A stretch of DNA of 31,736 bases from Dehalococcoidia bacterium (GTDB taxonomy: Bacteria; Chloroflexota; Dehalococcoidia; JAUYDP01): assembly GCA_030691805.1 (NCBI GenBank), contig JAUYDP010000207.1, positions 1 through 31,736 of the forward strand. Reading direction: 5' to 3'. Below the pieces are notes generated by a model. It was given only the letters and a program-made list of their open reading frames with translations, was not told the DNA's origin and searched no databases. The translations under genes were made by a program, and so were the position numbers. This document shows positions 29,788 through 31,736 of the stretch, piece after piece. The first letter of the stretch is position 1; the number at the start of each line of letters is the position of its first letter.

Positions 29788-29847
29788 GCATAACGACTTT
29801 CCGACCAACGGCGGCCAACGGCCGTCCGCTGCCTCGGCTTGTCAGCC
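29788..29847 (-). mobile_element. attC-like integron recombination site (60 bp, partly degenerate)
   Basis: Minus strand: R'' GGCTGAC, 5 nt, L'' GAGGCAGC, GG[A]CGGCC-GTT-GGCCGCC (stem with the typical extrahelical A), L' GTTGGTC, 8 nt, R' GTTATGC; starts 4 nt after a stop codon. Confidence 0.7.
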
Positions 29848-29851
29848 CGCC

Positions 29852-30632
29852 TCACTGCGCTATGCCTCCGTCGCCCTCCCCGTTTGCGATCTCTGACGTT
29901 GGCTCGGCGACTATGCTGACTCCTTCTCCGACCGACGGCAACGCGGTCACGACCCGGTCCAGTTGGGCAAGAGCATGCGCCACCACCGCATCGCGTTCGA
30001 CTCCAGTTGGGAGGAAGAGCAGAAAGGCGTCGGTATCCATCTTCTCACAGAGCCCGCAAAGCTGGCGCACGTCTGCGGCCCGGACCGCGTCCCCGGCACG
30101 CTCTAGGGCACCTCCAATAACGTCGAGAAGAGCACGCCAGCTAATAACGGCGAGAATGAGATCGTTGATGCGAAGCTGGCGCTGCTCGGGAGCCGGTGTG
30201 ACGGACTGCGCGCCCGAGTGTCCTGCCTTCGTTGTGCGCCTGAGCAACTCAGTCCAGAGCGTGTCGAGGCGCTGGTTTGGCTCACTTTCAGACCGTTGCC
30301 ACCAGCAGCCCACCCGTGACACGGAGTGACGCTAAGTACGTTACGGGTTGAGCTTCGGTAAGGCCAGCCCAAAATTTCGCTTCGAGAACAACGCGGACCC
30401 GGCCGTCGGATCCTGTGCCAACGAGATCGGGGCGCGCACCGCCGTCGCCGCTGACTTGAGTCTGGTAGGCGAGGTCGTTCGGACAGTCGAAGCCGAGCTG
30501 CCTTGCAAGGGCGGCGAGCGCCGTGCGGGCCTCGTGCGAGCGGCCAAGAATGAAGCCGAGAGCTTCGGTGGCAAGGTTCTCCGGGTGCTCCGCAAAGCGA
30601 AGCGCGAGATGGGAGAGCACGGTGTCAGGCAA
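29852..30632 (-). pseudogene. Frameshifted PD-(D/E)XK nuclease-like gene (fragments 30632-30288 and 30322-29852)
   Basis: TTG after AGGAGG; RPDLVG...VLEAKFWAG fits PD...ExK; the frame stops at GLLVATV* while QRLDTLWTELLRR continues in the +1 frame. Confidence 0.65.
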
Positions 30633-30654
30633 CGCTACCTCCTACAGGTTGTCG

Positions 30655-30704
30655 GGCTACCGCCCCGGCGCTCACCGGCGCGCGGCACGTGGGCATGGTC
30701 AAAT
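30655..30704 (-). mobile_element. Degenerate attC-like site (right half recognisable)
   Basis: Minus strand GCC-GGTGAGC-GCCGGGGC-GGTAGCC has the same 7+8+7 spacing as the 29788 site; R''-like ATTTGAC contains the upstream stop; only 50 bp, left half damaged; followed by SD and start codon. Confidence 0.45.
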
Positions 30705-30902
30705 CTTCGGGGGTTTGAGGGGACGTTCTGGCGGGGACTCCCGGAAGACCATCGCTCCCTGTCGCTTTCCCACGGCGCGTATCGTGCGCGCCCGATCCCG
30801 TAGAGCGTCCAGCAAGGCCAGCTTCTCCGCCACTGGACGCTGCGCCAGAGAGCGCCGCCAGGCGCGCTTGCTTTCCATGATGCGCTGAAGGTCGAAAGTC
30901 AT
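30699..30902 (-). CDS. Small basic helical protein coupled to the nucleotidyltransferase (candidate antitoxin)
   Basis: ATGA overlap with upstream stop; 67 aa, MESKRAWRRSLAQRPVAEKLALLDALRDR. Confidence 0.6.
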   Translation of the reverse strand: MTFDLQRIMESKRAWRRSLAQRPVAEKLALLDALRDRARTIRAVGKRQGAMVFRESPPERPLKPPKI

Positions 30903-31426
30903 GAGTCACCCTGAAGGAATCTTCGCTCGAATGTCCGCCAGCGGCCAACCAGGCCGTGCCGACGCAGGATGCTCTGAAACCTCTCCGCATCGATCGCGGC
31001 GGCCTCGATAAACTGAAGCAGGCGGGCGTGGTCCTTGGCCCGCCCGGTTTCGAGGGCAAGGGCCGCGAGGTGTTCCGCCGTGAACACCCTCGCCGGCGTG
31101 CCCTCCACATCAAAGGTCACGGCCTCGGCCAGCGCTTCTTCGGCCAGGGGACTGGTGGGCGGCAGAAATTGAACAGGCCATCCGCCCATCACGATGTATT
31201 CCCCTTCGACCACCCCGCCACGGGCCGTGAGGTAATCGAAAATGGGGCGCGGGCTGACTATGACCTGACCGGGTTGCTGCCGGAACGTGACGAAGATGTC
31301 CACGTCCAGAGTGGCCACGGGCTCAAGGTAGAACGTTGCCCCCACTGCCCCACCGATGCCATACCGGTCCACGACCCCGTCGGCTTCCATCTGATTGATA
31401 AGGCTGATGACCTCAGCAATACTCAC
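30899..31426 (-). CDS. Pol-beta-fold nucleotidyltransferase, AbiEii/MenT-like
   Basis: GTG 31426 preceded by GGAAAGGG (175 aa; the 31633 start in the track overlaps the upstream gene); GIGGAVGATFY.EP.ATLDVDIFV, EHLAALAL, GRAKD. Confidence 0.75.
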   Translation of the reverse strand: MSIAEVISLINQMEADGVVDRYGIGGAVGATFYLEPVATLDVDIFVTFRQQPGQVIVSPRPIFDYLTARGGVVEGEYIVMGGWPVQFLPPTSPLAEEALAEAVTFDVEGTPARVFTAEHLAALALETGRAKDHARLLQFIEAAAIDAERFQSILRRHGLVGRWRTFERRFLQGDS

Positions 31427-31467
31427 GGGAAAGCCCTTTCCGATGGCAGAGAGTGCGATGCCCATCC

Positions 31468-31565
31468 CGCATCCGCCTCGGCGATCCAGCGCTGGCCCGT
31501 GACGCACTCGTGAGTCAACGACTTGCGGTAGCAAGGAACTGAAGCGTGATCTCGCGTTGTCGGCG
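31468..31565 (-). mobile_element. Possible highly degenerate attC-like site
   Basis: 10 nt after a stop: CGCCGAC-AACGC, internal hairpins (CTTGC-TACC-GCAAG), then GCTGGATC-GCCGAGGC-GGATGCG; R' box does not fit GTTRRRY well. Confidence 0.25.
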
Positions 31566-31575
31566 CGGCATAGTT

Positions 31576-31736
31576 TCACCCAGGCCGGGCGGCCCGTTCC
31601 AGGCGGGTCACCCAGTCGTTGAAATGCGGGCACTCCTTTCGGATCGTGTCCAGACCGATCTCCAACACTGCGAGTGTGCCCAGCAACGGTTTCTGGTACT
31701 TCGGAATCAGGTCCAGGACGCGCTTTGACGGTGCTG
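31576..31736 (-). CDS. C-terminus of a DUF4276-like protein (runs off the right edge), missed by ORF track
   Basis: APSKRVLDLIPKYQKPLLGTLAVLEIGLDTIRKECPHFNDWVTRLERAARPG*; APSKR, IGL..IR..CPHF..W...L motif recognised. Confidence 0.7.
   Translation of the reverse strand, partial: APSKRVLDLIPKYQKPLLGTLAVLEIGLDTIRKECPHFNDWVTRLERAARPG

Follow-up and report, generated by a model that had tools for sequence, protein, structure and literature searches.

The right-hand end of this contig raises the question of whether a few minus-strand genes that stand tail to tail with a ribosomal-protein operon are the remains of an integron. The window analyzed here is a whole contig of 31,736 nucleotides from a MAG of 469 contigs (94% complete, 3.6% contamination). 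The nearest named relatives of its RpoA protein are from Dehalococcoidia, in agreement with the Chloroflexota host that had been proposed from the sequence. The original prediction took the region from 29788 to 31736 to be a decaying cassette array, the distal end of an integron or CALIN converging on the operon, with intI and attI to the right. An attC is a recombination site that is recognized by the integron integrase as a folded single strand and marks the 3' end of a gene cassette; the conserved GTT of its R' core carries the cleavage point, and the AAC triplet of its R'' core is near-invariant.

Two in-house covariance models built from real, intI-linked attC sites were used for the search. 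Model R1 was made from eight genuine sites that adjoin intI genes elsewhere in the phylum (Chloroflexota), the seed arrays having been chosen beside TIGR02249-positive intI genes; their alignment yielded 9 covarying pairs and the canonical fold of an attC. Model R2 was made from 55 real sites. Real attC sites of intI-linked arrays scored 26 to 81 bits with R1. We regard R1 as specific, since it gave no match at E ≤ 1e-4 in 110 of 120 genomes of the same class and reached at most 14 bits on 43 kb of unrelated loci.

Both models recognized one 60-bp sequence (Table 1), as the original prediction had anticipated. R1 aligned over its full length with positions 29788-29846 of the minus strand (34.1 bits, E 2.7e-7 for both strands of the 31.7-kb window), and R2 gave the site 31.5 bits (E 1e-6); with the MAG contigs as the search space the E value was 2.3e-5. 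It was the sole R1 match in the window, the runner-up lying 23 bits lower, at 11 bits with an E value of about 1. The L''/L' stem, with its single bulged base, matches real sites column for column; real sites of 60-64 nt also have the L'' motif GCAGCGGACG and this bulge. The length of 60 nt is within the range of about 57-141 nt for attC sites. The position is also that of a cassette end: 4 nt separate the site from the TGA (29854-29852) of an ORF on the same strand. Beyond the site lies rpsI, the stop codon of which is 244 nt away in convergent orientation, so that the attC does face the ribosomal-protein operon as described.

To call the site near-canonical was, however, an overstatement. 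The R' core, GTTATGC, agrees with GTTRRRY at six of seven positions and has its GTT intact, whereas the R'' core, GGCTGAC, agrees with RYYYAAC at only five of seven, with GAC in place of AAC. When the bottom strand is folded, the R box stays open, with a 3-bp GAC/GTC pairing alone, and the energy of -12.3 kcal/mol (z -1.7) is a marginal gain over shuffled sequences. Five of six real short attC sites folded for reference gave -15 to -26 kcal/mol, with an R box of 6-8 bp in most; one weak attC site in the same MAG folds even less stably (-7.9). In the allele L006, from another sample, the site scored 30.7 bits and the R'' triplet is GAT.

Table 1. Features of the right-hand end of the window, in order of position.
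Feature	Positions	Strand	Remarks
rpsI, last gene of the ribosomal-protein/rpoA operon	29148..29543	+	hairpin after the gene, at about 29569-29592
REP-like palindrome (multi-copy), between rpsI and attC	29670..29700	.	BLAST: about 18 other contigs
Eroded attC site	29788..29847	-	R'' GGCTGAC 29847-29841; R' GTTATGC 29794-29788; L-box stem and bulged base retained
PD-(D/E)xK (PDDEXK_4-like) nuclease pseudogene	29852..30632	-	tblastn of intact homologues
36-nt patch at the frameshift site	30270..30305	.	supplants ancestral coding sequence
Spacer	30633..30698	-	no attC; GGAGG ribosome-binding site before a TTG start
67-aa partner gene	30699..30902	-	4-bp overlap (ATGA) with the upstream gene
AbiEii/DUF2204-like nucleotidyltransferase-family gene	30899..31465	-	weak DUF2204 match (below Pfam cut-off); Atlas features
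DUF4276 / PADLOC HEC-01B gene, C-terminal end	31576..31736	-	cut by the contig end

The ORF that the site closes is a broken nuclease gene. Comparison with intact homologues by tblastn placed residues 1-111 at 30632-30300, after which the frame shifts; residues 115-201 are at 30280-30020 and residues 319-346 at 30013-29930, with about 117 codons missing near 30014-30019 and a 25-aa read-on to the TGA. The family has 1621 members, mostly of 340-390 aa, and the normal length is about 350 aa. Its assignment comes from an Atlas structure (TM 0.89 to a PD-(D/E)XK cluster) and a weak Mrr_cat match below the Pfam cut-off; PADLOC and NCBIfam gave no match for the nuclease, the nucleotidyltransferase-like protein or the 67-aa protein. 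The patch at the frameshift site is 92% identical over 36 nt to an element in another Dehalococcoidia genome (G410), and the same element occurs in high-depth sample contigs, where its depth is about 400 in X1 and both sides have loose ends. Rfam held no family for the tail or the patch element, and ARAGORN found no tRNA in the tail. Decay was thus rightly inferred for the cargo, and alleles from other groundwater samples are broken differently, with a different stop, an 11-bp deletion, and a 418-bp deletion in the neighboring gene. In allele P0002/L006 the reading frame continues across the position at which the window copy is shifted.

R1 found no attC on five contigs with intact nuclease homologues, a small sample of short contigs, and on that basis the nuclease is not a known cassette gene. 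The start and end motifs on which a once-circular cassette had been proposed, GGTAGCCCGAC and GGCGGGCTGAC, are indeed present, but their complementarity of 8/11 is at the chance level: 12% of 66-nt windows drawn at random from the genome, and 27% of spacer shuffles, did as well or better. In L006, which is 95% identical, this complementarity is changed at two positions. Neither the 5' boundary of the nuclease cassette nor its insertion point (the attG side) could be located in the window.

The genes upstream gave no second site. The nucleotidyltransferase-like gene is 188 aa long from the ATG at 31465, and the usual 175 aa correspond to a GTG start at 31426; it has 4777 homologues, the best of them 72-86% identical and with names from several phyla. 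Together with the 67-aa gene it forms a two-gene arrangement that recurs in all three further genomic contexts looked at, on four contigs, and R1 detected no attC on four contigs with homologues of this module, again a small sample of short contigs. The two genes overlap, and there is therefore no spacer between them. The truncated gene at the contig end matched DUF4276 in Pfam (E 2.2e-12) and HEC-01B in PADLOC (E 1.3e-18). With filters off, neither R1 nor R2 had any match in the spacers 30633-30698 and 31466-31575, and the rest of the tail did not exceed about 9 bits; folding of the first of these spacers gave z values of +0.3 and +1.2 against shuffles, without excess structure. A degenerate attC in 31466-31575, suggested by an 8-mer, AAGTCGTT, common with the real site, was rejected because that spacer has no model match and no L box. 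Thus, of the proposed same-strand genes with attC-like spacers, the four genes do lie on the attC strand, but the other two spacers carry no signal. A scan for promoters and terminators gave counts at or below those of shuffled sequences, and no sigma-70-like promoter was found on the minus strand.

An integrase gene was looked for throughout the MAG, as had been proposed, and none was found; the best TIGR02249 score was 77 bits, against a cut-off of 265. At 94% completeness, and with a contig that stops at 31736, this falls short of proving the absence of intI from the organism. A complete integron would have an intI gene scoring above that cut-off no more than about 4 kb from its attC sites, and the window has none. 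By the definition of IntegronFinder (2016, PMC4889954), as quoted in a later paper, a CALIN consists of two or more attC sites, no farther than about 4 kb apart, without an integrase. The single attC of the window, with 1.9 kb searchable to its right, therefore does not make a CALIN, and the proposed array, integron or CALIN end comes down to one detectable site. What is found up to the contig end, a single attC and its adjacent CDS with no other att site or integrase nearby, corresponds to a SALIN.

Further attC sites were detected elsewhere in the same MAG. Two contigs, C11 and C239, have two sites each, less than 1 kb apart, which bracket small toxin-antitoxin-like genes (YefM and YoeB in C11; a pair encoding 79 and 75 aa in C239); in C361 a ParE-like gene is followed by an attC. 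Two sites of the MAG (C16 and C404) have in common a non-canonical R'' core, GCTGAC. Some sites of other contigs outscore that of the window and bracket toxin-antitoxin cassettes. Because other contigs of the MAG hold such attC-bracketed cassettes, a SALIN-type relic is the best reading of the window. We consider that 29788-29847 is probably a genuine, eroded attC that closes a dead PD-(D/E)xK nuclease cassette, a single site without an integrase as far as the contig reaches, in a GC-richer, polymorphic islet downstream of rpsI. The scatter of cassettes over C16, C11, C239, C361 and C404 in an integrase-less MAG might have come about by off-platform insertion, that is, by recombination between an attC and a genomic site, and GCTGAC could then be a lineage-specific variant recognized by a yet-unseen integrase rather than a product of decay; we regard this as improbable.

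The islet differs from the remainder of the window in composition. From 29600 to 31736 the GC content is 63.5%, against 56.8% elsewhere, which is in the top 2.3% of the 2.1-kb windows of the genome; the two spot checks reported earlier were exact (44/60 at 30481-30540 and 31/60 at 12001-12060). A terminator-like hairpin is found at 29757-29736, beyond the 60-bp site. When the tail was compared with the 60 nearest genomes, which are kin at the level of the class, no syntenic locus was found, and the palindrome and the 36-nt patch alone were returned. The palindrome also occurs at both ends of L006.

The assembly join between operon and islet passes through about 30 bp of this palindrome (29671-29699), and the islet with its attC could in principle come from another organism or locus. 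The k=31 contigs of all four runs break at the palindrome and none bridges it, the GC content jumps there, and the fragmentation and contamination of the MAG point the same way. Against such an artefact of assembly or binning, the depth of the islet matched that of the operon in all four runs, which came from four studies (islet/operon 10.4/11, 13/12.7, 8.5/9.4 and about 16/about 15-19), the palindrome family is native to the MAG, and a 30-bp repeat should be readily spanned by the reads and the larger k-mers of normal assemblers; we therefore think an artefact very unlikely. That the site has no integron history, and is a GC-rich hairpin of the terminator or REP type that resembles an attC by chance, would account for the non-canonical cores and the weak bottom-strand fold in a genome rich in palindromic repeats, with a terminator-like hairpin close by. 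This seems extremely unlikely in view of the E values for window and genome, of an alignment that extends over the full length and includes the L'' motif and bulge, and of the 23-bit gap to the next match in the window. Most genomes of the class, moreover, have no match at all, and higher-scoring sites in this same genome bracket classical toxin-antitoxin cassettes.

There is more to be said for the whole tail as the distal end of a larger array, the inner attC sites of which have decayed or lie beyond the contig, with intI to the right. All four genes are on the attC strand in DNA of raised GC content, they are of toxin-antitoxin or defence type, and their strand lacks a recognizable sigma-70-like promoter. 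Other attC arrays of the MAG stop at contig edges, integron integrases are present in some genomes of the class (9 of 401) and of the phylum (32 of 401), and deletions are clearly active in the islet. However, two models with filters off found nothing in either of the other spacers, the first of which has no excess structure, and the cassette-start motif is at the chance level. The nucleotidyltransferase module and the nuclease gene are without attC in nine other contigs, and the MAG contains no IntI or fragment of one. At least three separate ends in which a last attC is followed by a convergent chromosomal gene were found (C16, C11 and C239), whereas one array would have one such end. Finally, the right junction at 31464/31465 is a branch point in the population, and it falls at a start codon rather than at an attC. 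We consider a larger array unlikely. The DUF4276 flank to the right of this junction has lower depth in two samples and is missing from two others. Among the k=31 sample contigs there was no core-to-core joint that skips the cassette and no circular junction; such contigs cannot show absence and so do not address excision.

On the preferred reading, a SALIN-type relic, the cassette may have arrived by integrase-mediated insertion or may be the last survivor of an array. The nuclease cargo has decayed to a pseudogene, and the attC would have eroded, with AAC of R'' changed to GAC. Judged from its sequence, the cassette is probably no longer mobile, because R'' is mutated, the R box is unpaired and the genome has no integrase.

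A lone attC relic is of a kind already known, and the window adds one case. In a published survey of 21,105 complete genomes, 2469 had SALINs, 3400 in all, and 622 of these genomes had more than one. Like these, the window has one attC directly behind a CDS, without an integrase or a further att site in the vicinity, and its genome has several such loci; it differs in its mutated R'', unpaired R box and pseudogene cargo, which mark it as a fossil and not as a cassette with a demonstrable capacity for insertion or excision, and in its host, since the survey covered complete RefSeq genomes and this is the MAG of an uncultured Dehalococcoidia bacterium from groundwater. CALINs, with attC sites but no integrase, resemble C11 and C239, whereas the window itself has one site. 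The sedentary chromosomal integrons of Chloroflexota, whose intI-linked arrays supplied the seed sites, have short sites like that of the window: the length is 60 nt, an L'' motif GCAGNNGACG and a bulged base are present, and the ORF likewise lies on the top strand. Unlike the window, they contain 5-25 sites per array and an IntI that is intact (over 400 bits), and their canonical cores, GCCYAAC/GTTRGGC, close an R box of 6-8 bp, which the cores of the window do not.

A true attC was thus recognizable from sequence alone, but a single site did not warrant the inference of an array, and the relic in the window opens no new question. What it contributes is a record of relic integron cassettes from a groundwater Dehalococcoidia lineage that is uncultured and has no detectable integrase. 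Several small attC loci are spread across its genome, and the population data show one cassette being taken apart by deletions that differ from sample to sample. These findings accord with published work in which isolated cassettes (SALINs) and small CALINs are frequent and may be dead ends in the spread of cassettes.

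The Dehalococcoidia MAG under study (469 contigs, 2.7 Mb, completeness 94%, contamination 3.6%) has, at one contig end, four minus-strand reading frames that extend from 29852 to the end of the sequence and face rpsI, so that the predicted convergence on the ribosomal operon is confirmed. The nearest named relatives of its RpoA are MAGs of Dehalococcoidia and Chloroflexota, which bears out the presumed Chloroflexota host, and near-identical DNA is found in groundwater metagenomes of several studies. The tail downstream of rpsI has a GC content of 63.5% versus 56.8% in the remainder and is in the top 2.3% among the genome's 2.1-kb windows; two earlier GC spot counts were exact on recount. 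Between truA and rplM (28520-28660) there are direct repeats whose unit (…GGGGTCTTAGAGGGTGTCCCCCTATC…) is some 45 nt long; samples differ here by indels, one of them a 47-nt skip in sample X9.

Coordinates of features on the contig studied (C16) and of further attC loci on other contigs of the MAG
Feature	Contig	Position	Strand	Remarks
map-infA-rpsM-rpsK-rpsD-rpoA-rplQ-truA-rplM-rpsI	C16	end at 29543	plus	gene calls
attC-derived element	C16	29788-29847	minus	60 bp
Nuclease gene	C16	29852-30322 and 30288-30632	minus	two overlapping frames of one gene
67-aa ORF	C16		minus	partner of NTase-like gene; module 30699-31465
188-aa NTase-like ORF	C16		minus	overlaps 67-aa ORF by ATGA
DUF4276 / PADLOC HEC-01B gene	C16	31576-31736	minus	last 52 codons (C-terminal end) of a defence-candidate gene, cut at contig end
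attC locus	C11	1-688		truncated site at contig start, YefM-like and YoeB-like genes, second site, convergent chromosomal gene
attC locus	C239	2770-3543		two overlapping small ORFs flanked by two sites at a distance of 640 bp; convergent gene next
attC locus	C361	4666-4765		ParE-like gene, then canonical 100-nt site, amid ordinary genes
attC locus	C404	8073-8133		one site near contig end

Models of attC were built from independent material, namely the DNA beside intI genes of other genomes. Of 401 genomes searched in the phylum, 32 exceeded the cut-off of the integron integrase profile TIGR02249, as did 9 of 401 in the class. Cassette-side DNA from 18 of the positive intI genes was scanned for complementary RYYYAAC...GTTRRRY pairs with a hairpin fold, which yielded textbook sites of the form GCCYAAC...GCAGNNGACG...GTTRGGC. 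Eight short sites (60-72 nt) from 4 genomes, which aligned cleanly, were the seed of the first covariance model, R1; their consensus fold is that of a canonical attC, in which a 7-bp R box is followed by a spacer and then by an L stem bearing a single bulged base; nine pairs covary. R1 recovered 68 sites in intI-linked arrays at 26-81 bits, and 55 of these were used for a second model, R2. Specificity was good: among 120 further genomes from the class, 110 gave no match at E<=1e-4, and nothing in 43 kb of unrelated loci scored above 14 bits. A 43-bit attC-like match in reverse orientation was observed in the complete Chloroflexota genome G279 (L019:1059-1130(-)), just past the 5' end of intI, at the place expected for attI.

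With filters off, the sole significant R1 match in the window was at 29788-29846 on the minus strand, over the full model length (34.1 bits, E 2.7e-7; runner-up 11 bits). Given the range of R1 scores on intI-linked arrays, 34 bits lies within the span of real, non-seed sites. R2 again matched only 29788-29847 (31.5 bits, E 1e-6). The site starts 4 nt past the TGA of the upstream ORF, on the same strand, and has the exact L'' string GCAGCGGACG and the bulged base in common with real sites, 60 and 64 nt long, from one integron of Chloroflexota. We conclude that this element is attC-derived, as the original prediction held, the covariance-model check being run here with in-house models.

To describe the site as near-canonical is an overstatement. 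The GTT of R' (GTTATGC) is intact and L'' with its bulge is kept, but in R'' (GGCTGAC) the near-invariant AAC has become GAC, and this triplet is GAT in L006, a contig from another sample with a 95%-identical allele. The bottom strand is the attC strand that recombines; in the bottom-strand fold of the site only GAC and GTC pair, and the R box is open. This fold has an energy of -12.3 kcal/mol (z -1.7), against -15 to -26 kcal/mol for five of the six real short sites that were folded in parallel, in most of which 6-8 pairs close the R box; a weak site in the same MAG (C11:631-688) gave -7.9. GCTGAC is also present in R'' of the C404 site, so the non-canonical R'' could conceivably be a lineage-specific attC variant; decay is the simpler reading of the two.

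The predicted cassette array fails. With R1 and R2, filters off, neither spacer 30633-30698 nor spacer 31466-31575 gave an attC match, and scores in the rest of the tail did not exceed about 9 bits. The fold of spacer 30633-30698 is no better than that of shuffles, and the overlap of the 67-aa and 188-aa genes leaves no room for a spacer. The complementarity of cassette start and end, proposed as a sign of a once-circular cassette, is at chance level: 8 of the 11 positions of the start motif agree with the complement of the end, a score reached by 12% of random 66-nt windows from the genome and 27% of shuffled spacers, and two positions of the motif are changed in L006. A six-frame search of the MAG found no integron integrase, whole or fragmentary, the best match (77 bits) being Xer-like. 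The window is the entire contig, so there is no sequence to the right of 31736, where intI and attI had been predicted. The tail is no demonstrated array, and an integrase is not in reach.

The two overlapping frames next to the site are one gene of a PD-(D/E)xK family (1621 members, typical length 340-390 aa), with a D...EAK motif in the N-terminal part of the product and an Atlas structure matching a PDDEXK_4-type cluster (TM 0.89). Relative to an intact homologue of 348 aa, the closest one (60% identity), residues 1-111 are kept and, after a frameshift, residues 115-201; about 117 codons are then missing before residues 319-346 and a 25-codon read-on. The L006 allele (product P0002), which comes from another run, stays in frame across the frameshift site, has a TAG stop farther along and carries an 11-bp deletion at the junction shared with the window gene's deletion; its NTase-like gene has a 418-bp deletion. 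These lesions and the differently broken second allele make the original term "decaying" correct for the genes. Both alleles were found again in independent studies, and gene decay is polymorphic in the population. No attC was found near intact nuclease homologues in 5 contigs. At the frameshift, a 36-nt patch (30270-30305) has replaced the ancestral coding sequence; it has a 92% match to an element of non-coding appearance from another Dehalococcoidia genome (L046:1500-1536), also matches very high-depth contigs in the groundwater samples (about 400x in X1), and has no Rfam or tRNA match.

The NTase-like protein has AbiEii/DUF2204-like nucleotidyltransferase features and 4777 homologues, usually of 175 aa; the listed members are 72-86% identical to it, and the few named ones span several phyla. 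A small downstream partner (56-67 aa) always accompanies the gene, with a 4-bp overlap, and the two are probably a mobile toxin-antitoxin-like pair. In three other genomic contexts examined (4 contigs), no attC was found near this module. In a Methylomirabilis genome the module adjoins HicAB and Phd/ParE.

The join between rpsI and the islet passes through a 30-bp palindrome (29671-29699, within a REP-like repeat at 29670-29700; core GAGACGGGCC-N3-GGCCCGTCTC), at which every k=31 contig breaks. About 18 other contigs of the MAG have the palindrome too, and L006 has it at either end (20-50 and 1590-1620), bracketing the 1.6-kb islet allele. Four runs, each from a different study, all show equal depth for islet and operon, which argues for both belonging to one genome. 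All runs branch at the right-hand junction (31464/31465), which coincides exactly with the start of the NTase-like gene; the DUF4276 flank has lower depth in X1 and X2, is absent from X4 and X9, and is present only in a sub-population.

Further attC sites were found with R1 and R2 on four other contigs, so integron cassettes are present in the organism, or at any rate in the bin. Toxin-antitoxin-type cassettes lie between the two sites on C11 (YefM/YoeB) and between those on C239 (the two small ORFs). Several of these sites are at contig ends; C239 ends directly beyond its outer site. The cassettes are spread over several distinct places, of which three or more end against chromosomal genes, more such ends than one array can have. 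In the published view, small CALINs (clusters of at least two attC lacking an integrase) and SALINs (single attC lacking an integrase) are isolated cassettes, possibly inserted by an integrase at sites other than the platform, and the scattered small attC loci of this MAG present the same picture. We consider it rather likely that the real attC and dead cassette beside rpsI are a SALIN-type relic in a variable islet. Relics of this kind are already known, and 29788-29847 adds one more case, modest in interest.
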